From the NCBI GenBank assembly GCA_963695895.1, contig CAVOIK010000011.1, positions 34,561 through 98,560 of the forward strand: a DNA stretch of 64,000 nt, read 5' to 3'. This document shows, piece after piece, positions 3,342-64,000 of the stretch. Source of the stretch: an uncultured delta proteobacterium. GTDB taxonomy: Bacteria; Desulfobacterota; BSN033; UBA1163. The first letter of the stretch is position 1. Each line of letters opens with the position of its first letter. Under the pieces are notes generated by a model, which ran no database searches, had not been told where the DNA came from, and was given only the letters and a program-made list of their open reading frames with translations. The translations under genes were made by a program, and so were the position numbers.

Positions 3342-4559
3342 ATGAAAATAGCCTATTTTGATTGTTTTTCCGGAGCAAGCGGAGACATGATTCTTGGAGC
3401 GTTGATCGATGCCGGGCTCAGCCCCCGCGGGCTCAGGGAGGAGCTGAAAAAACTTCATCTTCCTGCGATTACCGTGAAGGCCAAAAAGGTTCTTAAGGGA
3501 GGGATCTCTGCGACGCGTGTCACCGTCGAGGGGAAAGATGAAGAGCGACCTCACCGGGATTTGAAAGAGATGTTGAAAATCGTGGACCGAAGTGATTTGG
3601 ATAAGGATGTGAAAACGAAAAGCCGGGAGATCTTCGAGAGGATTGCCTCCACAGAGGCAGAGATTCATCGGTCTGTGAAGGAAAAGATCCATTTCCATGA
3701 GTTAGGAGGTCTCGATTCGGTTGTGGATATCTGCGGGGCCGTATGGGGTTTGCGTCAGATCGGAATAGATCAAATTCACGTATCGAAGGTCAACGTAGGA
3801 GCAGGCTTTGTCAGGTGTGAGCATGGTCTCTTACCCGTTCCGGCACCGGCTTCTTTGTCCCTCATGAAAGGAAAACCTATTTATTCCTCCGGCGTGGATA
3901 AGGAACTCCTGACGCCCACAGGAGCAGCGATCCTGACGACCCTGGGGTCGTCCTTCGGAAATCTGCCTCCCATGAAGGTGGAAAGGATTGGGTACGGTGC
4001 AGGTCGAGACGATCTTCCTCATCCGAATGTCCTCAGGCTGATGATCGGAACGTCGGAAACGGCTGCTCGTGAAGAGAGGGTGATGGTGGTCGAAACAAAC
4101 ATTGACGATATGAATCCTCAATTCTACGACTACATCATGGAACAAATGCTTAAGATGGGGGTCAAGGAGGTTTTTCTCACCCCTGTTTTCATGAAGAAGA
4201 ATCGGCCCGCGACCCTTCTTACGGCCATCTGCTCTCTTGGACAGATGCCCGTGGTAACGGAATTCCTTTTCCGAGAGACGACAACAATCGGCCTCCGGTG
4301 GCGTGAAGAGAGGAGGGCACTGGCCGATCGGGAGATCCGTTTCTTCGACACAAAATACGGGAAGATTCGTTTCAAAGTGGCTCGGTGGGAAGGAGCAGTA
4401 ATTAATGTTTCTCCGGAATATGAAGACTGCAAGCGGTTAGCGCTCGAAAGAAAGATCCCTCTGAAGGAAGTGTTCGAGGAAGCCAGAAGACTGGCGGTAA
4501 CGATCAGTAAGGATAGTGAAGTGAAGCTCCACGCCCTCAAGGGCGGGGCTTCCCGGTAA
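3342..4559 (+). CDS. larC: LarC-family nickel insertion protein (DUF111)
   Basis: MKIAYFDCFSGASGDMILGALIDAG matches the LarC/DUF111 N-terminus and the length is 405 aa. The last ~14 codons run into a repeat element. Confidence 0.8.
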   Translation: MKIAYFDCFSGASGDMILGALIDAGLSPRGLREELKKLHLPAITVKAKKVLKGGISATRVTVEGKDEERPHRDLKEMLKIVDRSDLDKDVKTKSREIFERIASTEAEIHRSVKEKIHFHELGGLDSVVDICGAVWGLRQIGIDQIHVSKVNVGAGFVRCEHGLLPVPAPASLSLMKGKPIYSSGVDKELLTPTGAAILTTLGSSFGNLPPMKVERIGYGAGRDDLPHPNVLRLMIGTSETAAREERVMVVETNIDDMNPQFYDYIMEQMLKMGVKEVFLTPVFMKKNRPATLLTAICSLGQMPVVTEFLFRETTTIGLRWREERRALADREIRFFDTKYGKIRFKVARWEGAVINVSPEYEDCKRLALERKIPLKEVFEEARRLAVTISKDSEVKLHALKGGASR

Positions 4560-8534: not shown

Positions 8535-8544
8535 AGAGAGAGGG

Positions 8545-8655
8545 TCCCAGGGTTCAAGGGTTCTAGGGTTCAAGGTCTGGCAGGAAGCGCTTTTCATGAA
8601 TCGTGGAAGTCAGTTTTGCCTCGTACGCTCTCCCTCGAAGCCTTGAAGCCTTGGG
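8545..8655. repeat. Imperfect inverted repeat made of 8-nt tandem words (gggttcaa... / ...ccttgaagcc) between convergent genes
   Basis: The arms lie at 8545-8575 and 8632-8655. It may act as a bidirectional terminator. Confidence 0.55.
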
Positions 8656-9963: not shown

Positions 9964-10033
9964 AAGGTTGAGGTTAAGGTTGAGGTTAAGATTGAAAAAA
10001 ATGAAGTCCTAACCCTCAGCCTAAACCTAAGCC
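9964..10033. repeat. Long imperfect hairpin of 6-nt tandem words (ggttga/ggttaa vs cctaac/cctaag)
   Basis: The arms lie at 9964-9990 and 10008-10033. The right arm overlaps the MOSC stop codon. Confidence 0.6.
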
Positions 10034-10482
10034 TGCTCTTGGATGACTATTTCATCGCCCGCCGCTACTTTGCCGTCATTGATGACTTCGGCAAAGATTC
10101 CTTCTTTGGGCATCACACAGTCACCCGCCTGGTAATAGATTGCACACCGTTCATGGCACTCCTTGCCAATCTGGGTTACTCGAAGGACGACTTGTTTCCC
10201 AATGCGAATAATTGTTCCGATAGGTAAGTGGACAAGATCAATTCCCTCGGTTGTTATGTTCTCAGCAAAATCGCCATAGCCCACGTTGAGGCCCAGAGCC
10301 GTCATTTTCTGAATAGACTCATTGGCCAGTAGGCTGATCTGCCTGTGCCATGGCCCACCATGGGCATCATCTTTCAGTCCAAAGTCCTTGAGGACATGAC
10401 ATGAATTGACGTTCGTCTTCCGCGTCCCCTTTTTCTCGCTGATGTTGACGGCCAGGACTCTTCCTCTGTTCGGTTCTGTCAT
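10027..10482 (-). CDS. MOSC domain protein
   Basis: 151 aa. The pattern GLKDDAHGGPWHRQISLL...GDFAENITTEGIDL is typical of MOSC. Confidence 0.8.
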   Translation of the reverse strand: MTEPNRGRVLAVNISEKKGTRKTNVNSCHVLKDFGLKDDAHGGPWHRQISLLANESIQKMTALGLNVGYGDFAENITTEGIDLVHLPIGTIIRIGKQVVLRVTQIGKECHERCAIYYQAGDCVMPKEGIFAEVINDGKVAAGDEIVIQEQA

Positions 10483-11306: not shown

Positions 11307-12321
11307 TTATCCTCCAATCGCAGACATGTTGCGTTGGCACTTTTTGAACTGGGTTGTGTTTAGGTGGTGCCTTTCTGGTTTTGCGCGGAGCGCCTCGAGG
11401 AGACGCTCTTTGAGATCCTGATCGCTCCCGCCTTTTCGGAGAAGCTCCCTGAGATCAATCTCCTCATCGGAGAACAGGCAAGCCCTAATCTTTCCATCCG
11501 ATGTTAATCGAAGTCGGTTACATTCCCTACAGAAATGGCTGCTCACCGGGCCGATCAAGCCGATCTCGCCGGTCGCCCCTTCAAATCGGAATCTCAGAGC
11601 TGGTCCATCCCGCTGATCCGAGGGCAGGTCAATCAAGTGCCCGATCTTTTCAAGACGAGTTCTTATTTCCGGGATGGTTAGGATATCAGTTTCCCTCCAT
11701 GCGTCGCCATTGCCTGCGGGCATATATTCGATGTATCGAACGACCAAAGGAAGGTGAAGGGTCAGCCGCGCAAAATCTTCAATCTCATCGTCGTTCAATC
11801 CCTTAATGGCAACCATGTTGATTTTGATGGGGGAGAGGCCGACATTCAGAGACTCGAGAATTCCTTCCCAGACTCTTTCATATTCGTCCTTTCGAGTAAT
11901 CTGGCAGAACCGATCTCTCCGGAGAGAATCGAGACTGATGTTCACCCGTTTCAGACCGGCCCGTCTCAGATCCCGCGCAAACTCTTTAAGGAGAATGCCG
12001 TTGGTGGTGAGGCTGAGATCGTTGATTCCCGGGACCTGGGAGAGAAGGGAAACGAAGCTCAATCACCCCTTTCCTGACGAGAGGTTCTCCTCCGGTGAGC
12101 CTCACCTTTGAAATCCCTTCCGCTGCGAACACACGCACAATCCTCAGGATTTCTTCATAAGTGAGGATGTGCTCGTGAGGGATGAGAGGAATTCCTTCCT
12201 CAGGCATGCAGTAGCAGCACCGGAGGTTGCACCGATCTGTCACCGAAATCCGCAGGTAATTGATTCGCCTTTTGTAAGGATCGAGCAGCATGCCTTTTGT
12301 GTCCAATTGCCAATGACTCAA
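11307..12321 (-). CDS. moaA: GTP 3',8-cyclase MoaA (radical SAM), indel near 12060
   Basis: It contains the radical-SAM motif CNLRCCYCMP. The sequence continues in the second frame with LSLTTNGILL and the C-terminal cluster motif SHFCRECNRLRLTSDGKIRAC. Confidence 0.88.
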
Positions 12322-14303
12322 TGACCCAATGACTTGTCTATCAATTCTTCTCCTGTTCTTGAGACATCATAGCCTCCCATGCGCAGGACCATGTCCTTGA
12401 AGTCTCTGGAACGGATGGTCTCAAGGATCTTCTGGACCTCTTTGCTCTGGAAATAGACAGAGGGAATGACGAGGTCATAACGCTCTGTGCCAATCGGAAT
12501 GAAGTCGAGATGGAGGGCGCGAGCCGCGGACAGGATTCCAAGCCCGGTGTCCACCATCCCGCTGGCCACACTCGAAGCAACGGCCATGTGGGTGAATTCT
12601 TCCCTTTCGTATCCACGAATGTGACGTGGGTTGAGCGAAAGGGTTTTGAGGAGATGATCGAGAAGAATTCTCGTTCCAGATCCTTTCTGACGATTGATGA
12701 AACTGACGTCCTCTCTCTCGAGGTCCTTCAGCCCTTCGATCTTCTTCGAATTCCCCTTCGGCACGATCAATCCTTGTTCTCTGTTGACGAGGTGAATGAC
12801 TCTTACCGGCGTCCCTTTGAGATATTGGCGGATGTAAGGAAAGTTGTATTCTCCGGTGTCTGGATCAAGAAGATGGGAACCTGCCAGGTGACAGATTCCG
12901 TTCTTGATAGCCAGGAGTCCTCCCAAGCTTCCAACGTTCTGCGACGACAGAAAGAGAGGGGGATAGGATCTTCCCAAGAGACTGGCCAGGAGATCGAGGG
13001 TTAGATCGTGGCTTCCAACCATGACCACCGTGTTGCGGATCTCATCCAGAGGTCTGAGGAGTTCGGCCTCTGTTTCTTTATCTTCATCCAAGCCCTCGGA
13101 GAGGGCAGGAATGCGGAGGATCCCGTCTGCCCGGGTCAGAGAGGTGATCAGCCCGGAACCTCTCGGGAGAGGGGTGGCCAAAAACCTTTCCCCGATCTTG
13201 CCAATGGTTACCCTTAAGAATTCTTCCGTCCCTAACTTAGAAGGGATTTTTCTTGTAGGAAAAACCTTGATCCTCTGTCTTTCGGGTTTCATAAGTTGGA
13301 GCGATCGGTAAAGGATGGGCCTTACCAGCTCCTCGTAGGCGATGACGGCAGAGACAGGATACCCTGGGATTCCAACAATCGGACGCTCCATGAACTTCCC
13401 GATCAGGGTGGGCTTCCCGGGCATGATGGAAATCCCGTGTGCCAAGACTTCCCCTGACTCTTCGATGATGGATCGGGTATAGTCTTCCGAGCCAGCAGAA
13501 GAGCCAGCAATCATGAGGATCAGGTCGACCTCTTGACCGTGAGAAAGAAGCGCTTCCTTAATTCTCTTAGGATTGTCTTCAACTATCGGGTGACGCACAG
13601 GCTCTGCTCCGTCCTCTATCAGCAGTCCGGTGAGAACGTAGGAATTCGATTCAATGATGCCTGAGGGAGGACCCGGCAAGCTGGAACGGGATTGCTCCGG
13701 GTCTAACAACTCTGACCCCGTTGGAACGACGAGCACTGTGGGTTTCTTCTTCACAGGAACATCACGGTAACCGCTCGCGAGCAGGGCACCCACATCATAG
13801 GAAGTGATCTTGTGATTTTCAGGAAAAACCATCTCGGTGGCGATCAGATCCTCACCCACGGATCGAACATGTTGCCAGGGATGGGCTCCTTCTCTGATTT
13901 CAGCTGTTTCGGAATCAAGAAGGTGGACATCCTCAATCATGACGACCGCATCCATCTCCTTGGGGATGGAATTTCCCGTGTTAACGAAAAAGGCCTCTTT
14001 GCCAATCTTTAAGCTCTTGGGGGATTCCTCGGTGGCCCCATACGTTGCTGAAGCTTTAACCGCGATTCCATCCATGGCCGCGCAGTGGAAGGGTGGGGAT
14101 GAGATCTTAGCGAAGAGGGGTTCCGCGATCACCCGCCCCAGCGACTGAATCACAGGAATGGTCTCGGTTCCGAGATGGATAAGTTCAGCAACCTCTAATG
14201 CGATCGCTTTGGCTTCTTCGAGGGTCTTTTTCTTGAGATAGATGTTTCTTTTCATATCTACTGAGCCATGAAAATCGGTTTTATTTTTTCGTGGTGATGC
14301 CAT
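12318..14303 (-). CDS. MoeA-like molybdopterin molybdotransferase fused to a C-terminal periplasmic-binding-protein-like domain
   Basis: 661 aa. The MoeA core (AAMDGIAVKA...MIAGSSAGSEDY...GIPGYPVSA) is followed by a ~230-aa PBP-like domain. The start may be the internal ATG at 14255. Confidence 0.75.
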   Translation of the reverse strand: MASPRKNKTDFHGSVDMKRNIYLKKKTLEEAKAIALEVAELIHLGTETIPVIQSLGRVIAEPLFAKISSPPFHCAAMDGIAVKASATYGATEESPKSLKIGKEAFFVNTGNSIPKEMDAVVMIEDVHLLDSETAEIREGAHPWQHVRSVGEDLIATEMVFPENHKITSYDVGALLASGYRDVPVKKKPTVLVVPTGSELLDPEQSRSSLPGPPSGIIESNSYVLTGLLIEDGAEPVRHPIVEDNPKRIKEALLSHGQEVDLILMIAGSSAGSEDYTRSIIEESGEVLAHGISIMPGKPTLIGKFMERPIVGIPGYPVSAVIAYEELVRPILYRSLQLMKPERQRIKVFPTRKIPSKLGTEEFLRVTIGKIGERFLATPLPRGSGLITSLTRADGILRIPALSEGLDEDKETEAELLRPLDEIRNTVVMVGSHDLTLDLLASLLGRSYPPLFLSSQNVGSLGGLLAIKNGICHLAGSHLLDPDTGEYNFPYIRQYLKGTPVRVIHLVNREQGLIVPKGNSKKIEGLKDLEREDVSFINRQKGSGTRILLDHLLKTLSLNPRHIRGYEREEFTHMAVASSVASGMVDTGLGILSAARALHLDFIPIGTERYDLVIPSVYFQSKEVQKILETIRSRDFKDMVLRMGGYDVSRTGEELIDKSLGH

Positions 14304-15594: not shown

Positions 15595-15609
15595 CTTGAT
15601 TTCCTGTCC

Positions 15610-15715
15610 GTCTCCTTTCCAAACACGGGAGGTGTGGCCGTTTCCAACCACGCCCTGACGGCCATTTCCCATATCTGGATGATTGTCAGACTTAGGCAAA
15701 TGGCTCGGAGATCAT
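15610..15715 (-). promoter_or_regulatory. Moco (molybdenum cofactor) riboswitch aptamer
   Basis: The minus-strand RNA is cuCCGAGCC...cAGGGCG-[hairpin]-CCUCCCGUguuUGGAAAGGag. From memory this matches the E. coli moaA leader (cAGGGCG...GCCUCCCGUaucUGGAAAGG). It sits directly upstream of the Moco biosynthesis genes. Confidence 0.75.
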
Positions 15716-15795
15716 ATAAAATAATAATTCATCTCAACCCAAAAATCAATTAATAAAAGGGCACTTAAGCCCTCTTTCCCTAGCAGGGATTAGGG

Positions 15796-25144: not shown

Positions 25145-25162
25145 AGAATTAACGTGAAAAGG

Positions 25163-25292
25163 TTATTAAGTCATTGGTCATTAAGTCATTAAAACCATGA
25201 CCCACTCAAACCTCGCAATTCGGAACTGAATGACCCAATAACTCAATGACTCAATACCTAATGACCCAATGACCAATAACTCAATGACTACG
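25163..25292. repeat. Long imperfect hairpin of 7-8-nt tandem words (gtcattR / aatgacYc)
   Basis: The left arm is gtcattggtcattaagtcatt. The right arm is aatgacccaataactcaatgactcaat..., with aat recurring every 7-8 nt. It lies between glpB and glpA. Confidence 0.65.
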
Positions 25293-26938: not shown

Positions 26939-27035
26939 CACCGCAGAGACGCCAAGGACGCAGAGAAGATCTATCCATCAGTCTATTCCTCTGCAATCTC
27001 CCTGCCTGCCGGCAGGCAGGAGCGTCTCTGCGGTG
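26939..27035. repeat. IR-bounded 'caccgcagag' mini-element enclosing the perfect 20-bp palindrome
   Basis: caccgcagagacgc...gcgtctctgcggtg, with cctgcctgccggcaggcagg at 27001-27020. Confidence 0.7.
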
Positions 27036-27734: not shown

Positions 27735-27848
27735 GCGTGCCCCGCAGGTCCCGCCCTGGACGGCAGGGGCGCAATATCAACAATAAATCATTGCCGGGAA
27801 GCCCCGCGCTGTGCCTGCCTGCGGTAGGCAGGCGCCGGGAGCTTCAGT
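27735..27848 (+). repeat. Divergent variant of repeat family A
   Basis: gcgtgccccgcagg...aggggcgcaatatcaac...ccgggaagcccc...gcctgcctgcggtaggcaggc...gggagcttcag. Confidence 0.5.
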
Positions 27849-29215: not shown

Positions 29216-29369
29216 CAAGTGCCCCGTAAGCCCCGCCCTTGAGGGCCTGCCCTTAAAGGCCTGCCCTTAAAGGCAGGTCCCTGCCTACCGGCAGGCAGGA
29301 AGGGGCACAATATAAAAGGAAAGTACCTTACCGGGAAGTCACGCCCTTTAGGGCGTGGAGCTTCACTTG
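29216..29369 (+). repeat. MITE-like dispersed repeat, family A, copy 4 (with an internal duplication)
   Basis: Same ends and core as 7320-7446, plus the duplicated gcctgcccttaaaggcctgcccttaaaggcagg. Confidence 0.85.
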
Positions 29370-32512: not shown

Positions 32513-32591
32513 CGGGGCGTAGCGCAGCCTGGTTTAGCGCGCCTGCCTTGGGAGCAGGAGGTCGGCAGTTCAAATCTGCTCGCCCCGACCA
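32513..32591 (+). tRNA. tRNA-Pro (anticodon TGG), CCA encoded
   Basis: Manual cloverleaf: acceptor cggggcg/cgccccg, anticodon stem cctgc/gcagg, loop cttggga, T-loop ttcaaat. Confidence 0.85.
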
Positions 32592-32661
32592 TCCTTAAAG
32601 TGGCGAGAGCTGATCAGACGGACCTTGGTTTTAGACTTTGCACTTGAACGATTTTGACATT

Positions 32662-32738
<77 letters not shown>

Positions 32739-32805
32739 GATTGGAATTGGCTTAACGAGTCATAAAGGCCATAGATGGTGTTGATCAATGGTGATGGTGA
32801 GTGTA

Positions 32806-32883
32806 GCTCAGTTGGATAGAGCACTGGGTTGTGGCCCCAGTGGTCGGGGGTTCGAGTCCCCTCACTCACCCCATGCGCCCGTA
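32806..32883 (+). tRNA. tRNA-His (anticodon GTG) with G-1, CCA encoded
   Basis: An extra 5' G precedes the acceptor gtgagtg/cactcac. The anticodon loop is ttgtggc and the discriminator is C. Confidence 0.9.
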
Positions 32884-32884
32884 G

Positions 32885-32961
32885 CTCAGTTGGATAGAGC
32901 GTCGGACTTCGAATCCGCAGGCCGTCCGTTCGAGTCGGACCGGGCGCGCCACAAACCATGT
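32885..32961 (+). tRNA. tRNA-Arg (anticodon TCG), CCA encoded
   Basis: Acceptor gcgcccg/cgggcgc, anticodon loop cttcgaa, T-arm gtccg-ttcgagt-cggac. One T-C mismatch sits at the top of the anticodon stem. Confidence 0.8.
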
Positions 32962-33051
32962 GAGGTTTATGGCAGCCCTGAATTTTACGTAGTTCAGGGA
33001 GCCATGGACTCTGTCGCGGATAGCGAATAGATTCAGTAGCCGGTTAAAGGT

Positions 33052-33127
33052 GAGCCGTTAGCTCAACAGGTAGAGCAACTGACTCTTAATCAGTAGGTCG
33101 CAGGTTCGATTCCAGCACGGCTCACCA
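33052..33127 (+). tRNA. tRNA-Lys (anticodon CTT), CCA encoded, with an A-A mismatch in the T-stem
   Basis: Acceptor gagccgt/acggctc, anticodon loop ctcttaa, T-arm gcagg-ttcgatt-ccagc. Confidence 0.85.
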
Positions 33128-51633: not shown

Positions 51634-51862
51634 TCCTTCCGATCAGGGTAGGTTGTTAAAGAATACTCTGTCCAGAGGCAGATTTCAATTAAATCGGAGC
51701 CAATAAAACGATGGCTTCCAGGGTTGCGCATCCAAAAAGCTGACGGGCAGGTTGGCTTGATCCTCGTCCTTAGACGGAGAGAAATGCCGACCCAGTAATG
51801 ATACCCACATTACCCGGGAGCCCTCGCCAGAGATATGAACAGGAAAGAGAGGAGAGTTTACC

Positions 51863-52140
51863 GTGAGGAAATTGAGAAAGCTGCCAAAATTCAAGAACGA
51901 GAAGGAAGAATTTAAGTTCTGGTCAACCCATGACTCCACAGGATATGTGGATTATTCGAAGGCCAAAAGGGTGGTGTTAGCGAACCTGAAGCCTTCGACC
52001 AGGGCGATCTCCATCAGGCTACCGGAGTCCCTTATCACGCATAAAAAGTGTTGGCCAATAAGCGAGATATTCCCTATCAGTCTCTGTTGAAAATGTATTT
52101 GATAGAGAAGGTAGAAGAAGAGTTCCGCGAGGCGAGATAA
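51863..52140 (+). CDS. brnA: BrnA-like antitoxin (CopG/RHH C-terminus), indel in an A5 run near 52037
   Basis: KFKNEKEEFKFWSTHDSTGYVDYSKAKRVVLANLKPSTRAISIRLPESL, then in the other frame KVLANKRDIPYQSLLKMYLIEKVEEE. Confidence 0.65.
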
Positions 52141-52150
52141 ATTAGCAAGT

Positions 52151-52240
52151 CAAAGGCCTATCTTCCCCATTATTCATATTATTGGATTGCCAGGATCTGG
52201 AAAGACTACTTTGGCTGGGCAACTGTCTCTTTGCGGTTTG
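52151..52240 (+). pseudogene. P-loop NTPase gene fragment truncated by the junction repeats
   Basis: It encodes PIIHIIGLPGSGKTTLAGQLS (Walker A) and then runs straight into heptamer repeats. No ATG start is present. Confidence 0.5.
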
Positions 52241-52463
52241 TTAATTCTCGTGCGTTTTTTGGGCTTTGCCCTATGCTCTGCGCGCCATGCTCTATGCCTG
52301 CCTGCCGGTAGGCAGGCGCTCTGCGACTTTCAGTTTTTGGGGTTTACTCTATGCCCTATGCGCCATGCTCCGTGCTCTATGCGGTTTATTGGTTGACCCC
52401 CCTTGCGACTTACGACTCGCGCCTTGCGGTTTTTATACCCTTGCGCCTGACGCCTTACGGAAT

Positions 52464-52510
52464 TTGACGGGCGGTTCATATTGATGTATTATTTACAACA
52501 TATGATGTAA
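52464..52510 (+). promoter_or_regulatory. Promoter plus near-palindromic operator upstream of the wHTH-nucleotidyltransferase gene
   Basis: TTGACG, 17 nt, then TATTAT (52487-52492). Immediately after comes ttacaacatatgatgtaa, palindromic at 16 of 18 positions, at 52493-52510. Confidence 0.5.
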
Positions 52511-55440: not shown

Positions 55441-56149
55441 ATGGGAAAAATCGTGGCAGCTGTGACATGCGACATCGTGAGATCGCAGAGATATTCAACG
55501 GAACTGAGGAAGAGAATTGACACCCTCCTGAAGAAAGAATTCGCCAAAGTGTACAAAGCCTACCCAAACGCTATTCACACGCCTACCTCTTTTAATATTA
55601 CTGTAGGTGACGAATTCCAGTTCGTCTTGTCGAAAGTTGAGAAGGCCTATGAGTTAACGATTTTCTACCGTGCGCTGGTTGCCCTCGCCGATATTACTCC
55701 GATGATCAGCTTCCGTTCGTCGATTGGGATCGGTGAGATCGCTGTCGAAAACAAGAAGGATTCCTATTCCCAGGATGGTAAGGCATTCCATCGTTCTAGA
55801 GAGGGCATCAATTTCTTCCGGAATCAGAAATATCAGAGGGAGGAGACGTACCAAAATCGTAACCGGAGACAGGGCCCTCGACGAGACCTTGGATCTCATT
55901 CTCATGTACCAGGATCTCCTGGAAGAAAAGTGGACTCGTGCGCAATGGGAGGCCATTCGCTGGCGACTGATGTTACCGACCTATGAGGAGATCGCCCGCA
56001 AGTTAGGGGTTGCTTATCAAAACGTCCAGAAACGACTGAAGGCAGCCAACTGGGATGAGTTTAGCAAGGGGATTGAATTTATTGAGAAGGTTTTGACGTC
56101 ACACCTTCAAAAGGGTGTAAGCGGCAATCTCACCCCTAAAAGGGTGTAA
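55441..56149 (+). CDS. SatD-family protein with a C-terminal HTH, indel near 55840
   Basis: AAVTCDIVRSQRY...ITVGDEFQF...SIGIGEI. In the second frame: WTRAQWEAIRWRLMLPTYEEIARKLGVAYQNVQKRL. Confidence 0.65.
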
Positions 56150-56886: not shown

Positions 56887-57173
56887 TGGGCTTTTTGTTT
56901 TGGCGCCTGACGACTTACGTTTTACTCCTTGCGCCTCGCGCCTTGCGATTTCAACTTTTGGGGTTCACTCTATGTCCTATGCCTGCCCGCCGTAGGCGGG
57001 CGCTACCTGCCTGCTTGCAGGTCCGAAGCAGAGGAAACTGCGTAGGAGGATGCGCTGTGCGATTTCAGTTTTTGGGGTTCACTCTATGCCCTATGCGCTA
57101 TGCTCTTTGCGTCTTTTGCTTGTGCCCCTTGCGACTTACGACTCGCGCCTAACGGTACTTGTTGGAGGTGGCC

Positions 57174-57353
57174 ATGCCAGCAATTGCATCTCTTGAAGAC
57201 CTAAAAGCTGCGCAGAAAGATCTCTTGGAAGCGAAGGATCTGGATGAGTTGAAAGGTGCGTTCAAAAAATGCCGTCGAATCGGCTGGAAAAATGTGTGTA
57301 AGTTGTGGCTGGAAGAGCGTACACCAGAGCAATTGAAGGGTGAAAGCGGATAA
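57174..57353 (+). CDS. 59-aa repeated ORF, copy 1 (family unknown)
   Basis: MPAIASLEDLKAAQKDLLEAKDLDELKGAFKKCRRIGWKNVCKLWLEERTPEQLKGESG, with a ggaggtg RBS 4 nt upstream. Confidence 0.6.
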   Translation: MPAIASLEDLKAAQKDLLEAKDLDELKGAFKKCRRIGWKNVCKLWLEERTPEQLKGESG

Positions 57354-57508
57354 TTATTTATTGCTTTGCGGGGTAGGGTATGTGTGTTTTTTGGTTTCAA
57401 CTCCTTACTCCTTACACCTCACTCCTTACGTCTTTTGAAGGGGAGGGCGAGTAAATAGTGTAGGCCTGACACCCTAGTCACTATTCAACTAAACAGGAGG
57501 TAAGAAAT

Positions 57509-57853
57509 ATGAAGAGAGAGATTAAGGTCGAAAAACTTGATACAACTAAGGAGAAGGTTCTTTATGATAATTGTGTGATTAGCAAGAGAATTATTACTAA
57601 AGCAAGAAGTGGTTCAGAAAAGATGTCGTTTCATCATACCTTTATCAAGAAGGGTTGGGAACACCCGGTTTCATATCCTGAGATGGACGAAATTATCTAT
57701 TTCTTAGATGGCAGAGCAAAGATCTCATATGATGGGAAAGAAGTTGAAGTATCATCAGGGTTCTGCGTGTATATTCCTGCAGGTTGTGAATACAACTACC
57801 GGGCTCTTGACGATGCAACGATGGTTTGCGTTTTTTCACCGCCGGCAGAGTAA
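57509..57853 (+). CDS. Cupin domain protein
   Basis: 114 aa. The HHTF...EIIYFLDGRAKISYDGKEVEVSSGFCVYIPAGCEYNY pattern is cupin-like, and an aggagg RBS is present. Confidence 0.7.
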   Translation: MKREIKVEKLDTTKEKVLYDNCVISKRIITKARSGSEKMSFHHTFIKKGWEHPVSYPEMDEIIYFLDGRAKISYDGKEVEVSSGFCVYIPAGCEYNYRALDDATMVCVFSPPAE

Positions 57854-57980
57854 AGAAAAGAAGCAATGGGGGTCGGCTCTTGGGAAGGGACACATGGGGT
57901 AGGAGGATGCTCTTTGCGTTTTTTGCTTGCGCCCCTTGCGACTTACGACTCGCGCCTAACGGTACTTGTTGGAGGTGGCC

Positions 57981-58160
57981 ATGCCAGCAATTGCATCTCT
58001 TGAAGACCTAAAGACAGCACAGAAAGATCTCTTGGAAGCGAAGGATCTGGATGAGTTGAAGGGTGCGTTCAAGAAATGGCGTCGAATCGGCTGGAAAAAT
58101 GTGTGTAAATTGTGGCTCCAAGAGCGTACCCCAGAACAATTGAAGGGGGAAGGAGGGTAA
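57981..58160 (+). CDS. 59-aa repeated ORF, copy 2
   Basis: It differs from copy 1 at 4 of 59 residues and has an identical RBS and leader. Confidence 0.6.
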   Translation: MPAIASLEDLKTAQKDLLEAKDLDELKGAFKKWRRIGWKNVCKLWLQERTPEQLKGEGG

Positions 58161-58260
58161 AGTGGGCACGTTGGTCGCAATGATCCTAATTCACGGTTCA
58201 GGCCCCGACCCCCTTGCGTCCTTCAAGTTATAATTTCATGAACGTCCCAGAGGCCTACTA

Positions 58261-58296
58261 TTGACAAAGGAAACAATTTAGTTATAAATTGTTTCC
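58261..58296 (+). promoter_or_regulatory. Promoter overlapped by a perfect 11-bp inverted repeat, upstream of the ATPase gene
   Basis: TTGACA, 16 nt, then TATAAA. The inverted repeat is ggaaacaattt (58269-58279) and aaattgtttcc (58286-58296). Confidence 0.55.
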
Positions 58297-58309
58297 TGAG
58301 GTAAACACC

Positions 58310-59614
58310 ATGCCCGTCGATCCGTTGCTTCAGATCGTTGCAGAGTGGATCGAAGAAGTAACGCTTCCAAAACTGATCCCACGAAGCATCGCTCCCATCA
58401 ACCTTGAGCGACTCCGGGACATCCTTGCCATCGTGGGACCACGACGAGCGGGTAAGACGTTTCTCATGTATCAACTCATGGGGTCGCTGCTCCAAACGCA
58501 TCGGTGGACGAAACAGGATATCCTCTTTGTTGACTTCGAAGATTACCGATTGAAGGGGTTCCGGACGGAGGACGTGGAACCGCTCTTTGTCGCTTTTAAT
58601 CAGCTCGCAGGACGATATCCGACCTTTCTCTTCTTTGATGAAGTCCAGTATCTCCCAGATTGGAACCGGGTGCTCCGCACGCTCCACAATCGAGGGAGAT
58701 TTCATATTGTCATCTCCGGCAGCAACTCCAAACTTCTTAAGGGCGAAGTGGCAACGGAACTCCGGGGGCGTTATACGGATGTCCTCCTCCTGCCGTTCTC
58801 TTTTCGAGAATTTCTCGCTTTCCGGCGGGTCACCTACACCCCGGCCCTTCTTCACACAGCGGCCCGAGGTCGCATCCTGCGAGCGTTTGACGACTACTTG
58901 AAAGAAGGAGGGTTTCCGGAGGTGTTGATCCGTGAAGCAACGACGGAAAAAAGGAAGCTTCTCCAGACGTACTATAACACGATCTTCTACCGCGATATTC
59001 TGGAACGGTTTAACATCAAGGCAAAAACCATCCTCGACGGGATGATGACCTACGTCGTGAATACACCCTCAGAACTGTTTTCCATTTCTGCCTTCGAAAA
59101 ACAGCTCCGGTCGAAACAGATCCCCGGAAGCAAGCGAACCATTGCCAATTATCTTCGCTACCTGCAGGAGGCTTTCTTCGTGATCGCGAACGAGAAGTTC
59201 TCCTATTCCCCGCGGCATCGCCTGATGAATCCCAAAAAAGTCTATCTGACGGACACGGGATTTCTGATGTTAGCCACCCCATTCTCGGAAAACCGGGGCA
59301 AAGTGCTGGAAAATCTCGTCGCCATTGAGTTTTTCAGGCGAGAGCAGGAGATGTTTTACTTCAAGGGTAGACACGAATGTGATTTCATCGTCAAAGAGGG
59401 GACTCAACCTCGGGAAGCAATCCAGGTCTGCTGGGAGCTTCAGCCGCAGAACGAGAAGCGGGAGCTCCAGGGATTGTTGGAGGCCATGATCACCCTGAAA
59501 CTACGAAAGGGCAGGGTTTTGACCTACGCCCAGGAAGAGACGAGAAAGATCGAAGGCCGAACGGTCTCCGTCTCCCCAGTATGGAAATGGTTGTTAAACA
59601 GTGAGGTCCAGTGA
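58310..59614 (+). CDS. AAA-type ATPase with a DUF4143 C-terminal domain
   Basis: Walker A GPRRAGKT and Walker B FLFFDEVQ. The C-terminal DUF4143-like region is typical of this family. Confidence 0.75.
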   Translation: MPVDPLLQIVAEWIEEVTLPKLIPRSIAPINLERLRDILAIVGPRRAGKTFLMYQLMGSLLQTHRWTKQDILFVDFEDYRLKGFRTEDVEPLFVAFNQLAGRYPTFLFFDEVQYLPDWNRVLRTLHNRGRFHIVISGSNSKLLKGEVATELRGRYTDVLLLPFSFREFLAFRRVTYTPALLHTAARGRILRAFDDYLKEGGFPEVLIREATTEKRKLLQTYYNTIFYRDILERFNIKAKTILDGMMTYVVNTPSELFSISAFEKQLRSKQIPGSKRTIANYLRYLQEAFFVIANEKFSYSPRHRLMNPKKVYLTDTGFLMLATPFSENRGKVLENLVAIEFFRREQEMFYFKGRHECDFIVKEGTQPREAIQVCWELQPQNEKRELQGLLEAMITLKLRKGRVLTYAQEETRKIEGRTVSVSPVWKWLLNSEVQ

Positions 59615-59827
59615 CAAGGCCAAGTAGGCATTGTGCCTGCCTGCCGGTAGGCAGGCGCTATGCCTGCTTGCAGGTCCGAAGCAGAGCAGGCTGCGTAGGA
59701 GGATGCGCTGTGCGACTTTCAATTTTTGGGGTTCACTCTATGCCCTATGCGCTATGCTCTTTGCGTTTTTTGCTTGCACCCCTTACTCCTTGCGCCTCGC
59801 GCCTAACGGTATCTCTTGGAGGTGCTT

Positions 59828-60007
59828 ATGCCAGCAATTGCATCTCTTGAAGACCTAAAATCTGCGCAGAAAGATCTTCTGGAAGCGAAGGATCTGGATG
59901 AGTTGAAGGGAGTGTTCAAGAAGTGGCGAAGAATTGGATGGAAAAATGTGTGCAAGCTGTGGCTGGAAGAGAGAACCCCGGAACAATTGAAAGGTGAAGG
60001 CGAATAA
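59828..60007 (+). CDS. 59-aa repeated ORF, copy 3
   Basis: MPAIASLEDLKSAQKDLLEAKDLDELKGVFKKWRRIGWKNVCKLWLEERTPEQLKGEGE. Confidence 0.6.
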   Translation: MPAIASLEDLKSAQKDLLEAKDLDELKGVFKKWRRIGWKNVCKLWLEERTPEQLKGEGE

Positions 60008-60227
60008 ACCTCATTTTGGTGAGTTAGAGATGCCGTGTACGTTCTTAGTTTTGTCCCCTTGCGACTTACGACTCGCGACTTGCAGCTTTTTTATACCCCT
60101 TACTCCTTTCGCCTTGCACCTTACGGTATTTTATGGTCACCAGAGCAGTTGAAGGGGGAGGGCGAGTGAATAGTGTAGACCTGACACACCAAAACGACAA
60201 AACATATACAATCTCTTACATGGAGCC

Positions 60228-60794
60228 ATGAGAATGGGCAAAGACGTGGAATTGGTTTCTCCAGAGCACATCGAACAATCGATCCTGTTGATTCGTCACC
60301 AAAAAGTGATGCTTGACTCTAACTTGGCGGAACTTTACGGAGTGAGCACGAAAAGGTTAAATGAGCAGGTTAAACGAAATCGTGCACGTTTTCCGGGGGA
60401 TTTTATGTTTCAATTGACAGTATCAGAGACCGACATTTTGAGGTCGCAATTTGCGACCTCAAAAAAGGGAGGCGGGGGGCGTCGGTACCTTCCATATGCT
60501 TTCACAGAGCAAGGGGTAGCCATGCTATCCAGCGTGCTCAACAGTGAAAGAGCAATTCAGGTTAACATCGAGATCATGCGTGCTTTTGTCCGATTGCGGC
60601 GAATTCTCGCCTCTCATGCTGCTTTGGCTCGAAAGCTTGACGCTCTCGAAAAGAAATATGATGCCCAGTTCAAGGTTGTCTTTGATGCCATACGTGAATT
60701 GATGAAACCCCCTGAATCCAAAAAGCGCCCAATCGGGTTTCTTGTTGAGGAGCCTAAGGTTCCTTATCTCACAAGAAGGAAAAGGAAAAGTTAG
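60228..60794 (+). CDS. ORF6N domain DNA-binding protein
   Basis: [43 protein letters not shown]...[19 protein letters not shown] is typical of ORF6N. Confidence 0.75.
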
Positions 60795-60986
60795 GTGTTG
60801 GGGAAGAGGTTCAGATGTGGCAATTCATGATATGTGTTTTGCGTCGCCCTTGCGACTTACGACTCGCAACTTGCGACTTTCAGTTTTTTGGGGGGTTACC
60901 CTATGCTCTATGCGCCATGCGCTATGCTTTTCTTGTGCCCCTAACTCCTTGCACCTCACGCCTAACGGTATCTTTTGGAGGTGCTT

Positions 60987-61160
60987 ATGCCAGCAATTGC
61001 ATCTCTTGAAGACTTAAAAGCTGCCCAAAAGCCTTTACGCGTGATGCTCTCTGCGCTATGCTCTATGCTTTAGGAAAATGGCGGCGTATGGCTGGGAAAA
61101 TGTGTGTAAGTTATGGCTGGAAGAGAGAACCCCGGAACAATTGAAAGGTGAAGGCGAATA
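60987..61160 (+). pseudogene. 59-aa repeated ORF, copy 4, with its central part replaced by heptamer repeats
   Basis: The 5' 45 nt and 3' ~85 nt match copies 1-3. Positions 61032-61074 read cctttacgcgtgatgctctctgcgctatgctctatgctttagg instead of the coding sequence. Confidence 0.75.
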
Positions 61161-61447
61161 AACGTGATTTTGGTGAGTTAGAGGTGCTGTGTGCGGTCTT
61201 ACTTTCGATCCCTCGCTCCTTGCGCCTCACTCCTTACTGAGTTGAGAGGAGTGGGTGTCTGGATCGAAAAACTGAAAGAAATGAGCAACGTCCCAACCCA
61301 ACGCACTGCAAACCCAGCGCAAAATTGGCTATTCTGATTATCCCGGACAGTGATTCCGATTTGATGCCGGACGCCTGTTCCGAAGGATGGCGGACACCCT
61401 GGTCGGAGCGAAGCGACGCTGGGGTTTTAGGATATCTTACCGATGAA

Positions 61448-62188
61448 TCATGGGACGTCAAGTTTTTGTTTCTTTCTCATGGATCCTCCTTTCAATTGAA
61501 TGCGGTGAGCATTGTGAATCAGTCGATCCAGGATGGCATCGGCGATCGTTGGATCCCCGATATGGTCGTGCCAGTTTTCCACAGGGAGCTGGCTCGTGAT
61601 AAGGGTAGAGGTATTGCCGTGGCGGTCTTCGATGACTTCCAGAAGATCTCTTCGCTCGGTGTCGGTCAGAGGGGCTAAGCCCAAATCGTCAAGGACGAGG
61701 AGATGGGTTTTGGAGAACTTTTTGATGAGACTTCCATAACTGCCATCGGCCCGGGCGAGAGCGATCTGATAGAAGAACTGAGGGCAACGGAGGTAAAGGG
61801 TTCGGAATCCTTCGCGGCAGGCTTTCTGAGCCAGGGCACAGGCGAGGAAGGTTTTTCCGACACCCGTGGGACCGGAGATCAGAAGATTCTGATGGTTTCG
61901 GATCCAGTTACAGGAGGCAAGATTCAGGAGGACCGATTTTTCGATGCCCCGGGATGTTTTGAAGTCGATATCTTCGACGCAGGCCTGGAGTTTAAGTTTG
62001 GCCTCTTTGAGAAGTCGTTTGAGGCGAGTGTTTTCCTTCCAGGTCCATTGACGATCGACGAGGATACCAAAGCGGTCATCGAAAGAGAGATCCTGGAAGG
62101 AAGGCTGCTGGGACTGTTCTTTAAAGGCCTCAGCCATGCCGAGAAGTTTCATGCCATAGAGTTTGTCAAAGGTCTGTTCGTTGAGCAT
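61448..62188 (-). CDS. istB: IS21 helper ATPase IstB
   Basis: Walker A GPTGVGKTF, Walker B LLVLDDLG, 246 aa. Confidence 0.9.
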   Translation of the reverse strand: MLNEQTFDKLYGMKLLGMAEAFKEQSQQPSFQDLSFDDRFGILVDRQWTWKENTRLKRLLKEAKLKLQACVEDIDFKTSRGIEKSVLLNLASCNWIRNHQNLLISGPTGVGKTFLACALAQKACREGFRTLYLRCPQFFYQIALARADGSYGSLIKKFSKTHLLVLDDLGLAPLTDTERRDLLEVIEDRHGNTSTLITSQLPVENWHDHIGDPTIADAILDRLIHNAHRIQLKGGSMRKKQKLDVP

Positions 62189-62205
62189 GGGGTTTCATCA
62201 TCCTT

Positions 62206-63754
62206 TCACTGATAGTATTGTCTTCCTCTGAGGTTTGAATGTTCAAGCAGAGGCGGAGGGGTTTGAGAAGAAGCGACGGTAAGGGGCTGCCGATCCAATC
62301 CATTTTTGAGGATGGACTCCACGTTCTTATAGGAATAGGCTTTCATTCTGAGCGCTCTGGCGCAGGCAGATTCGAGACGCTCGGGAGTGTAACGTTTTCC
62401 TAACCGAAGCAGGCCCAGACACGAGCGGTACCCCTGCTCCGGGTGAGGACGGTTCTCCAGGATGCAGGCGACCAGTTTCTGAGTGGAAGGGCCGATCTTC
62501 GCTGCCCATCCGATGAGCCGAGAAGGAGTCCATTCGAGATATTTCTGATGGGACTTGGGCATGTGCTCGGAGACGGTGGTGGGTTTCCCGGGGCGATAGC
62601 TCCGGAGATGGGAGGCGACTCTTCGGCCCTTGAAGAAGATCTCGACGGTGGTCTCGGTGAATCGCACCTCCACCTTCTGGTGAATCAGCTGATAGGGAAC
62701 GCTGTAGTAATGGCGATCCACCTCGATATGGTAATCGATATTGACCTTGGCGCTTTTCCATTCGGCAAAGACGAACCGTTGAGAGGGGAGAGGCTTCAAG
62801 GCGGGTTTTTCCAGAGTCTCGAAGAGGATCTTGCGAGAGGTAGGGAGTTTCTCAAAGGGGCGATGGTTTAAGATCTCCAGTTGGACCCGGAGGGCTTGAT
62901 TGAGTTCCGTGAGACTGAAGAAGGTTCGGTGTCTTAGGGGAGCCAGACCCCAGCGTTCAATCTGCAGGACCGCGGACTCTCCCTTGGCCTTATCCCGGGG
63001 CTTACCGACACGAGCAGGAATGATGACGGTGCCGTAGTGCTCAGCCATTTCCCGGTAGGTGGCATTGAGGTCGGGTTCATAGCGGCAGGAGCGGGTGACA
63101 GCCGAGCGGAGGTTATCGGGGACCAGGATCTCGGCAACACCACCAAAGAATTCAAAGGCATGGATATGGGACTCGATCCAGGAAGGAAGCTCTTGGGAGA
63201 GGGAGGCTTCGGCAAAGGTGTAGTTACTGGCCCCTAGGGTGGCCACAAAGATCTGGGCTTCGGTGATGAGTCCCGTTACGGGATCAACGATCGGCATGGT
63301 CTGGCCGGCATAGTCGACGAAGAGCTTTTCTCCGGCTCGGTACTCTTGGCGAAGACAGGGGTCGAGCTTCTCAGCCCATTGGTGGTAGAGGCGACAGAAC
63401 TGACTATACTGGTACCCGTCGGGAGTTCCCTTGCTTGTACTCATCCCATAGGAGCTGAAGCGTCACCCCCTTCTTCTTGAGTTCCTGGTTCAGGTACTCC
63501 ATGGGAGGCATTTGGCGCTTCTCTGAGGGGATAGGGACCCTGGTAGGAAAGAGACGATGCTCCAGGGAGGCTTCATCCAGATCAGGAGGAAGGGGCCAGC
63601 CAAATCCGGCCTTCTGAGCACGATCCAGATAGTCATGAACCGTGCTTCGACCGATCCCCAGGCTTTGAGCGATTTCTCGGGTGGAGAGATTCTTTTCGTG
63701 GTAGAGACGCAGTACTTCTTTAACCTTACGCATGGATAATCTCCTTGTGGCCAT
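62206..63754 (-). CDS. istA: IS21 transposase IstA, indel near 63425
   Basis: The N-terminal HTH (STREIAQSLGIGRSTVHDYL) lies in ORF 63404..63754. The DDE core (VDYAGQT...) lies in ORF 62206..63444. Confidence 0.88.
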
Positions 63755-63875
63755 CTATGCCTCCTCAGAACGTTTCTCTGAGGACAGTAATGGCTCGATG
63801 GTCGATTATCCAGCGTCACTTCTCCAAAGACTTACAAGGTGTCCGGCATCAATCGGAATGACTGTCCGGGATGGA

Positions 63876-64000
63876 TCGTGGTAAAGACGCAGGACTTCTT
63901 TAACTTTACGCATGGATAATCTCCTTGTGGCCATCTATACCTCCTCAGAAGGTTTCTCTGAGGACAGTAATGGCTCGATGGTTGATTATCCAGCGTCACT
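63876..64000 (-). mobile_element. Second IS21 copy: left end plus the first ~12 codons of istA, interrupted by the complete copy and continuing beyond the window edge
   Basis: 63887-64000 duplicates 63705-63820 at about 95% identity. The junction falls right after ...LRLYH (taccac|gatccat). Confidence 0.75.

Follow-up and report, generated by a model that had tools for sequence, protein, structure and literature searches.

We describe a small gene of 59 codons that occurs four times, each time upstream of a different gene, between positions 57174 and 61161 of a 64,000-nucleotide stretch of DNA from an uncultured delta proteobacterium (contig CAVOIK010000011.1 of assembly GCA_963695895.1), hereafter the window. 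The small open reading frame (ORF) is a genuine protein-coding gene under selection. It very probably represents a new family and an amplified, island-associated module. The explanation that we favour as a whole, put forward tentatively, is that a portable “front-end” module stands in front of island genes. That the module works by a controller or front-end mechanism is possible, if on balance unlikely.

Three copies of the ORF are intact (57174-57353, 57981-58160 and 59828-60007). Pairwise they differ at 4, 5 and 4 of 59 residues, matching the four or five differences given in an earlier note made on this DNA from its letters, and are identical at 164/180, 157/180 and 154/180 nucleotides. The fourth copy, which starts at 60987, is broken. 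About 48 nt of the middle of its ORF, after codon 15, are swapped for 43 nt of heptamer-type DNA (61032-61074), and the loss of one more base puts its two halves in different frames. The last base of its stop codon is 61161, where the note had 61160; the other positions given there are correct. With copy 3 as the query against the window, tblastn returns the other intact copies at 1e-32 to 1e-35, which excludes a chance likeness, and no further copy elsewhere in the 64 kb. The repeats are wider than the ORF: one family of 291 nt spans copies 1-3 and one of 103 nt is common to all four. The leaders of copies 1 and 2 are identical at 72 of 74 bases, those of copies 3 and 4 at 45 of 49, and leader plus ORF of copy 1 (56980-57353) match those of copy 3 (59634-60007) at 88% over 376 nt. 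The shared leader carries a GGAGGTG ribosome-binding site, as had been reported. Hence the small ORF travels with leader and trailer, as seen in the repeat families and by blastn and tblastn within the window, and the earlier view that it belongs to the repeat module and not to the cargo is upheld. The genes 3' of copies 1-4 are unrelated, which domain matches confirm: a cupin gene, an ATPase gene with AAA_14 and DUF4143 domains (6e-35 and 8e-16), a gene for an ORF6N protein, and a convergent IS21. The gaps between the small ORF and the first three of them measure 155, 149 and 220 nt, close to the 150-220 nt first estimated.

The substitution pattern is that of a protein-coding gene. Among the intact window copies dN/dS is 0.04-0.08, with pS of 0.31-0.56 (Nei-Gojobori counts), so that the comparison of rates proposed in the earlier note reveals a clear synonymous bias. 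In 30 copies aligned from other genomes conservation begins at the ATG and ends at the stop codon, with third-position wobble and three-base periodicity, and the per-codon counts contain unchanged residues spelled by many synonymous codons. Over all pairs of intact copies the median identity is 0.78 for all positions and 0.55 for third positions, and the proteins of the amplified clade in the sampled genomes are 74-95% identical to the window copy. Among 58 full-length copies 44 are intact, and a distant clade retains both the frame and the protein motifs. We note that synonymous sites in the 5' half of the ORF are unusually fixed in amplified-clade copies (TCT 93%, CTT 89% and GCA 94% at codons 5-7): normalised synonymous entropy is 0.56 for codons 1-29 versus 0.85 for codons 30-58. 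RNAalifold on the ORF supports no RNA structure that would account for this, and the 45%-identical distant clade lacks it; a DNA-level site and gene conversion are possibilities. The leader of copies 1 and 2 is also more conserved than the synonymous sites of the same copies.

The products form a family of ~60-residue all-helical proteins that is undescribed in the libraries and literature searched. Among 5.8 billion proteins there are 1277 clusters (90% identity) of relatives, all unnamed and devoid of Pfam domains. The best 120 of the 1277 clusters are 85-97% identical to the window copy, and the 192 matches among 50%-identity representatives are mostly fragments or read-throughs. The exact 59-residue products of the window copies are absent from this collection. 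The signature of the family is MPAIASLE(D/E)L ... R..G(W/Y)KN ... TPE.LKG. For the window copies no curated family of Pfam, NCBIfam, PHROGs or PADLOC is above threshold, and the best Pfam match, DUF6455, concerns one copy only (E 0.014, 15.8 bits against a cut-off of 23.7). The AlphaFold model consists of four short helices (pLDDT 78.6), in keeping with the helical look noticed before. With this model Foldseek against PDB and BFVD gives nothing at E <1, a PDB profile search gives nothing below E 0.02, and no helix-turn-helix (HTH) or ribbon-helix-helix (RHH) fold or profile of the kinds found in C proteins, Xis/AlpA, omega or antitoxins is recognised. The fold and profile searches thus leave the protein as unrecognised as the earlier note had found it, and the nucleic-acid binding suggested there gains no support from an HTH or any other known fold.

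Several other identities were tried and rejected. The N-terminal Met-Pro is nearly invariant, as in a 4-oxalocrotonate tautomerase, but the model is all-helical and there is no match to Pfam Tautomerase. A double-glycine leader of a ribosomally synthesised and post-translationally modified peptide (RiPP; Nif11/NHLP type) finds no match in Pfam or NCBIfam, and there is no core peptide, since the ORF ends at or beside GG. A phage or plasmid origin was rejected because the family has no relatives on the viral or plasmid records of IMG/VR, PLSDB and the INPHARED phages. Among unusual family members, P0262 (125 aa) is a natural head-to-tail fusion of two distant-clade copies, which hints that the small protein acts as a dimer; a structure model of it, taken as a dimer proxy, is too poor to use (pLDDT 50). 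P0296 (206 aa) is an unrelated protein ending in ...RIGWKNVCKLWLEERSPEQLKGERDN, i.e. the 3' half of the small ORF fused to another gene. P0192, a giant protein with 21 weak matches, was judged an artefact of summed low-complexity matches.

Homologues in other genomes, which the earlier note had proposed to look for, are abundant. A search of species-representative genomes yielded 78 loci (labelled L001 onward), most of them in Thermodesulfobacteriota, Syntrophaceae, Syntrophorhabdus or “Deltaproteobacteria” metagenome-assembled genomes (MAGs). Close copies (81-95%) also occur in MAGs labelled Omnitrophota, Thermodesulfovibrionia, Fischerbacteria, Aminicenantes and NC10, and copies at 41-50% identity in Spirochaetota, Planctomycetota and Omnitrophota. 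The family falls into two clades. The Trp-rich clade, to which the window copies belong, is multi-copy, with several loci per MAG, mostly in Thermodesulfobacteriota-type MAGs. The distant clade comprises 38 clusters, ~45% identical and 61-66 residues long, which retain MPAIASLE(D/E)L, R..GYKN and TPE.LKG while their synonymous sites are free. In the loci examined its gene is single-copy, with ordinary metabolic genes as neighbours; in L047 it and the adjacent gene are convergent. This single-copy, free-standing form is the ancestral one. The idea of a constant partner gene of the single-copy clade was dropped, the neighbours being different in every locus. A LemA-like gene, recognised by eye, does stand one or two genes 3' of the small ORF, beside a membrane-protein gene, in an Aminicenantes MAG (L031:5066-5626) and an Omnitrophota MAG (L051:4201-4788); none is seen in the other single-copy loci examined.

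The amplified clade keeps defence-type company. The gene 3' of the ORF is co-oriented with it in 29 of 30 cases, at a median gap of ~130 nt. When the 539 neighbouring proteins of the 78 loci were clustered, the recurrent families were ORF6N (15 loci), HTH-MNT, Fic and DUF4143 ATPase (8 each), HsdR (7), DUF1016, XRE and DUF5615 (6 each), RadC (5), and HEPN and DUF433 (4 each), essentially all of them co-oriented with the small ORF. It precedes HsdR, HsdM and DUF499 genes in several loci, and in L010 a ribosome-binding site and the DUF499 gene follow 19 nt past the ORF, which is an operon-type junction. In the window itself the downstream genes match the PADLOC defence candidates PDC-S01 and PDC-S05, and window genes match PDC-M05A/B as well. 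ORF pieces alternate with other genes, as they do in the window, in L041, L021, L046, L074 and L064.

The leader of many copies is rich in pyrimidines and made up of tandem heptamers, most often CTATGCG and CTATGCT, then the CTTACGC and CATTCCG types. Period-7 arrays are tenfold denser in amplified-clade loci than in distant-clade loci (0.20 vs 0.02 per kb). An ORF piece is found within 150 nt for 48% of the arrays and for 19% of random intergenic positions; 31 arrays lie upstream and 10 downstream. Within the window, 10 of 11 period-7 arrays fall at 52.3-61.1 kb. The co-occurrence of the ORF with heptamers and with variable, unrelated defence-type neighbours, which the earlier note had suggested surveying, is therefore borne out beyond the window. 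A conserved promoter match with an extended -10, TTTACT-17-TGgTATAAA, stands 5' of the ORF in L023, L025 and L027 and similar ones in L008, L010, L020 and L030; where such a match is strong the heptamers lie 3' of it, i.e. in the transcribed leader. These assignments, like the promoter, terminator and some motif calls in general, were made by eye. At least one downstream gene had been thought to have its own promoter, and a TTGACA-18-TAAATT match is indeed present 5' of the DUF4143 gene of the window. An Rfam scan of 56.8-61.5 kb with E up to 5 gave nothing except a 17-bit chance match; as this and RNAalifold were negative, a structured RNA or riboswitch in leader, ORF or trailer was rejected. 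A literature search on heptamer repeats in Syntrophus-type bacteria returned nothing relevant.

Other repeats surround these arrays. The perfect hairpin GCCTGCCTGCC/GGTAGGCAGGC occurs at 27001-27020, 27810-27835, 29280-29299, 52295-52320 and 59634-59659, with a variant at ~56985-57003, and is found in L033, L034 and L036 too. It looks like a dispersed repeat of the repetitive extragenic palindrome (REP) type, and in the island it stands at the left edge of heptamer arrays or nested within them. Intergenic tandem arrays outside the island (8541-8575, 9964-10034, 12311-12334, 25161-25289 and 29235-29274) have other periods and units (AGGGTTCA, CAATGACT, ACTCAATG eight times, and a 14-mer). The genome is seemingly rich in short intergenic arrays, with heptamers of the CTATGC and CTTACG types only at 52-61 kb.

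On the 3' side a non-coding trailer recurs in two alternative forms, motif X (ATAGTGTAGACCTGACAC) and motif Y (~55 nt), and all 32 matches to motif Y are co-oriented with the ORF. The clearest junction comes from L003 and L005, which are 93% identical over the upstream region, the ORF and motif Y and unrelated from 3 nt past Y; one downstream gene thus gives way to another at the end of the trailer. In the window the stop codon is followed first by heptamer-rich DNA, then by a degenerate copy of the last 20-30 nt of the ORF and finally by X or a degenerate Y. A second small ORF inside motif Y, starting at an ATGA overlap with the stop codon, was rejected because indels between loci break its frame. 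Motif Y is directly 5' of the RadC/UPF0758 gene in four of the five loci that have one (L002:7710, L015:6770, L021:6006 and L074:5735); in L074 an HsdR fragment is directly 3' of RadC.

Individual copies of the module erode rapidly, and about half of all copies are eroded at breakpoints that recur. With the ORF DNA as the query nhmmer finds 110 pieces, 58 of full length (the 44 intact ORFs among them) and 50 internal fragments, whose breakpoints cluster at ORF nt 45-48, 84-93 and 120-129. One variant, resembling copy 4 of the window, recurs in at least six MAGs: nt 46-~92 have given way to GAAGGNGTGAGTATTTA, a CTATGC array and ...TGTATGAAG. The replacement, GA(A/T)GGNNTGAGTATTTA plus the CTATGC array, is seen in L039, L041:2831, L046:1009, L055, L056, L074:5464 and L076 as well as at 61032-61074 of the window; it is about as long as the lost piece of the ORF, and in L039 it is even in frame. 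A likeness of such heptamer inserts to intron boundaries (GTGAGT ... CTAAC) is taken as coincidence because the inserts are simple repeats of 43-130 nt in a plainly bacterial context. A REP-like element of ~86 nt (TGGAGCCCCCATGGGAAAGG ... GGGCGACATCCCGGCC ... TCTCTGCCGGG) sits exactly at ORF nt 125/126 in several independent copies (L041:4127-4212 and 2998-3082, L064:~3650-3737, L074:~4040-4129). Sites are also listed at L045:3937 onward and at L026:3871-3935, the latter a related element after nt 45. Its insertion appears to be site-specific, the target being the repeated small gene. Variants with deletions have lost neither the leader nor the 3' end with X or Y.

For copies outside the window, the nearest relative belongs to a different genome in 16 of 16 cases. 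The paralogue lineages are therefore old or transferred, each kept under selection, and concerted evolution was rejected as an explanation for the high identity, similarity being lower within genomes than between them. The window copies are mutually closest (0.87-0.91 vs 0.80-0.83 to any outside copy). Selection on every copy fits units that are passed between genomes one at a time.

We suggest that the module of leader, small gene and trailer is a portable “front end” and may have been recombined repeatedly to the 5' side of island genes, with the downstream gene exchanged at the end of the trailer. The small protein could control its own module and the gene behind it, in the manner of the controller proteins of restriction-modification systems, and it might act by binding the heptamer leader. 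Once present, the repeated copies would promote duplication and deletion and would also offer targets for small invading repeats. A more specific version, reached by analogy and in our opinion a long shot, is that the helical protein binds the heptamers, either in the DNA or in the leader RNA, and gates the gene behind it, while ORF plus trailer would serve as homology for gene swaps; the module would then be a protein-coding counterpart of attC junctions. For comparison, omega binds heptads and HutP binds repeats that are spaced 7 nt apart.

Several observations weigh against this explanation. No homology or fold match in Pfam, NCBIfam, PADLOC, PDB or Foldseek points to a regulatory or nucleic-acid-binding role, and a regulator that acts in trans should not require so many copies in one genome. 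About one third of the intact copies have no heptamer array upstream and arrays also exist without the ORF, therefore a partnership of protein and heptamers need not be obligate. No consensus sigma-70 promoter is found 5' of the window copies, and two island genes in the window have promoter matches of their own. Conserved RNA structure is not seen in the ORF (RNAalifold -5 kcal/mol with one covarying pair) or in motif Y (no pairs). Among 225 further intergenic gaps in the related loci 15 (7%) hold another copy, and L080, a 14-kb island of ~20 genes beside a tRNA cluster, has one copy. The window is therefore the dense extreme and not the rule, and the arrangement of one ORF per cassette, which the earlier note had read from it, stands for the window and is too strong for its relatives. 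The ORF could be merely one frequent island gene. Finally, the loci were chosen for containing the ORF, and the binning of short contigs into MAGs may inflate the spread over phyla.

The last of these concerns about the ORF itself amounts to a rival account, in which it is one more island gene with an unrelated function of its own (e.g. anti-defence, stress or antitoxin-like), common and locally duplicated, whose position follows from the general co-orientation of islands. The sparse occupation of further gaps and the single copy in L080 agree with it, and so do the co-orientation of upstream genes (26/29), the free-standing distant clade and the mutual closeness of the window copies, which suggests local duplication. 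However, the duplicated unit leaves out the intervening genes, homology between loci stops exactly at the trailer, ORF pieces and other genes take turns in several independent loci (L041, L021, L046, L074), and the ORF takes heptamer arrays and trailer motifs along with it; we consider this account unlikely. Quite unlikely, in our estimate, is a small mobile element whose intact copies give the 59-residue protein in trans, whose deletion copies are non-autonomous, comparable to the miniature derivatives of transposons, and whose cutting is done by a host recombinase. It would explain the many copies per genome with their pattern of birth and death (44 intact, 50 fragments), the identical deletion/replacement variant in at least six MAGs, the leader and trailer kept by deletion variants, the purifying selection on each intact copy despite apparent redundancy, and the fact that all copies in a locus are oriented as its index copy. 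But neither target-site duplications nor terminal inverted repeats are defined, the left border is variable, no empty site is seen, a helical protein of 59 residues is implausible as a transposase, and the viral and plasmid collections searched contain no member of the family.

An integron-like array would make the module the site of a recombinase encoded elsewhere, and the ORF 3'-end remnants duplicated attachment cores, as with the tRNA 3' ends that flank islands. Co-oriented small accessory genes are typical of chromosomal integrons, serial 3'-end remnants, each followed by X or Y, do lie beside the downstream genes, the junction is at the end of Y, and L080 begins at a tRNA cluster. Yet no tyrosine recombinase is found among the 539 proteins of the 78 loci or in the 64-kb window (blastp and tblastn with IntI1 and XerD queries; the far end of the array lies outside the window), which also leaves the recombination accessory role proposed in the earlier note without a partner. 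A crude screen of both strands of 51.6-61.5 kb for attC-type sites (R'' RYYYAAC and R' GTTRRRY, 50-150 nt apart) gives no candidate pair, and an inverted-repeat scan detects only perfect REP-like hairpins and no imperfect ones. Some inter-core segments, of 27-130 nt, are too short for elements, and protein-level selection on the ORF would be needless for a bare DNA site; we regard such an array as decidedly improbable. A cis-acting leader peptide, whose translation (e.g. stalling at the Trp-rich stretch) controls the next gene, is very improbable. One co-oriented copy close to the 5' side of each gene in the window, selection on every copy and three Trp codons within 13 codons are what it would lead to, but conservation extends over all 59 residues and the N-terminus is invariant, the distant-clade gene is free-standing and in L047 faces its neighbour, no alternative RNA structures are found between the ORF and the downstream gene, and some downstream genes have promoter matches of their own. 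The last alternative, that the frame is an accident of a conserved non-coding repeat, could appeal to the run of the repeat into leader and trailer and to the synonymous conservation of the 5' half of the ORF. It is refuted by the dN/dS values, by the periodicity with sharp ORF borders and by the 45%-identical homologues, which vary synonymously and keep the protein motifs, and we give it practically no weight. An addiction component, a further role named in the earlier note, is not indicated because the downstream partner varies. On the whole the interpretation in that note is partly supported; it contains nothing on the conserved trailer motifs, on breakpoints that recur or on a deep clade with a single copy.

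Defence and toxin-antitoxin islands are known to be mosaic, and the shuffling and control of their genes are poorly understood outside integrons and phage hotspots. The present family is very abundant, undescribed and physically tied both to defence genes and to heptamer repeats, a long-standing functional puzzle. If the front-end explanation holds, with the small protein as controller or junction organiser, it would offer a handle on gene exchange in uncultured anaerobes and a candidate binding partner for bacterial heptamer arrays. If the protein is not a controller, it is still a new conserved small-protein family left unnamed by gene callers and databases.

The arrangement in the window is as follows, the junction module, leaders, ORF copies, trailers and downstream genes 1-3 being on the + strand. 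The variable region has at its left edge a frameshifted gene for a CopG-type antitoxin (PF12441, 2e-19; 51860-52140) and then a short P-loop gene fragment IIGLPGSGKTTLAGQL (52185-52230). A junction module without the small ORF lies 5' of an MNT/HEPN gene pair (52220-52470); it holds heptamer arrays (period-7 arrays at 52347-52382 in the array scan), the hairpin GCCTGCCTGCC/GGTAGGCAGGC (52296-52317) and a CGACTTTCAGTTTTTGGGGTT box, and has blastn matches to modules 1 and 3. A SatD-family gene 5' of the DUF3307 gene (55441-56149) is apparently frameshifted, its match covering profile positions 3-116 of 211 and a second frame running from 55724. Leader 1 (56887-57173) starts with a T-rich tail after the DUF3307 gene and contains CCTTGCG-type and CTATGCC-type heptamer arrays, hairpins and the GGAGGTG site. 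Copy 1 of the ORF (57174-57353) has Cys33 where the other copies have Trp, and gives dN/dS values of 0.08 with copy 2 and 0.06 with copy 3. Its trailer (57354-57476) consists of an ACTCCTT array (57400-57429), a degenerate second ORF 3' end and motif X ATAGTGTAGGCCTGACAC (57453-57472), and is followed by the cupin gene (57509-57853; 114 aa, Cupin_2 7.5e-11). Leader 2 (57898-57980) is a shorter version of leader 1, to which it is related by the 72 of 74 bases given above, and precedes the intact copy 2 (57981-58160). The AAA_14/DUF4143 ATPase gene (58261-59614) includes its own promoter match at 58261-58290 with a 13-bp palindrome, and matches PDC-S01 at 5e-105.

Leader 3 (59621-59827) comprises a hairpin (59621-59670), a CTATGCC array (59738-59765) and then CTTACTCCTTGCGCCTCGCGCCTAACGG with the ribosome-binding site, ahead of the intact copy 3 (59828-60007). 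Trailer 3 (60008-60189) holds heptamer arrays, an ORF 3'-end remnant at 60137-60166 that reads PEQLKGEGE (residues 50-59 by tblastn) and motif X (60167-60187). The gene for the ORF6N-domain protein follows (60228-60794; ORF6N 8.5e-35, PDC-S05 1e-59). Leader 4 (60840-60986) has CTTGCGA and CTATGCG arrays, and the pseudogene copy 4 (60987-61161) carries the heptamer-type DNA and the frameshift described above. Trailer 4 (61162-61300) holds a heptamer array, a degenerate ORF 3'-end remnant and a degenerate motif Y (~61255-61300), assigned by eye and below the nhmmer threshold. IS21 (61448-63754, - strand) terminates the array, with istB (IstB_IS21 2e-74) and an istA split over two frames (rve, Mu-transpos_C_2, HTH), the halves being 62206-63444 and 63404-63754. 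A second, partial IS21 comes next: within its final 200 nt the window has the IS21 end and the beginning of the HTH region once more (63806-63934). Farther off, a molybdenum-cofactor riboswitch (79 bits, 15596-15722, - strand) and a cluster of five tRNA genes (32513-33124, + strand) are ordinary features without relation to the small ORF.

Known systems resemble the present one in part. The C proteins of restriction-modification systems have a helix-turn-helix and bind to palindromic C-boxes. Here, too, a small protein gene stands directly 5' of, and co-oriented with, a potentially toxic defence gene; unlike a C protein, its product has no HTH by sequence or by model and its partners extend beyond restriction-modification. 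The omega protein is a ribbon-helix-helix protein. Dimers of omega (ParB) of pSM19035 bind four or more contiguous 7-bp heptads and control partition and neighbouring genes (PMC9499535). As with omega, a small protein is encoded beside arrays of contiguous 7-bp repeats. However, the present protein is predicted to be all-helical and does not match omega, and its heptamers are heterogeneous (CTATGCG, CTTACGN and CATTCCG types), direct only, and located in the transcribed leader where a promoter match is recognisable. Membership in the C-protein or omega families is excluded because there is no HTH or RHH fold. Heptanucleotide repeats TAACTGA are described from 5' leaders of Beggiatoaceae and cyanobacteria (PMC4679880). 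They likewise form short arrays of 2-6 direct heptamers just 5' of start codons, with a patchy phylogeny and a possibly post-transcriptional role. The unit sequences differ, however; in addition, the present arrays go together with a single repeated gene module and with defence islands, and they have entered the ORF itself, at a fixed position.

Mobile non-coding repeats and promoters 5' of unrelated genes are known as Correia elements, as REP elements and bacterial interspersed mosaic elements (BIMEs), and from “promoter propagation”. With these the present module shares its occurrence before non-homologous genes, its many decayed copies and its role as a target of other small elements; it differs in encoding a protein under strong selection and in having no terminal repeats or target duplications defined. 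Integron cassette arrays (sedentary chromosomal arrays, and attC clusters without integrase) also present co-oriented, short, unrelated accessory genes, often of toxin-antitoxin or defence type, with a repeated junction element, and their gene content varies between otherwise identical flanks. In integrons the junction is an attC hairpin; here its place is taken by a protein-coding gene of 180 nt, which is under purifying selection and has a heptamer leader. This gene is found at a minority of junctions in most loci and is accompanied by no IntI-type recombinase in the window or the 78 loci and no R''/R' sites in the screen of the window. Thus, repeat-punctuated mosaic islands are already known, and it is the protein family and its module that are undescribed in the libraries and literature searched.

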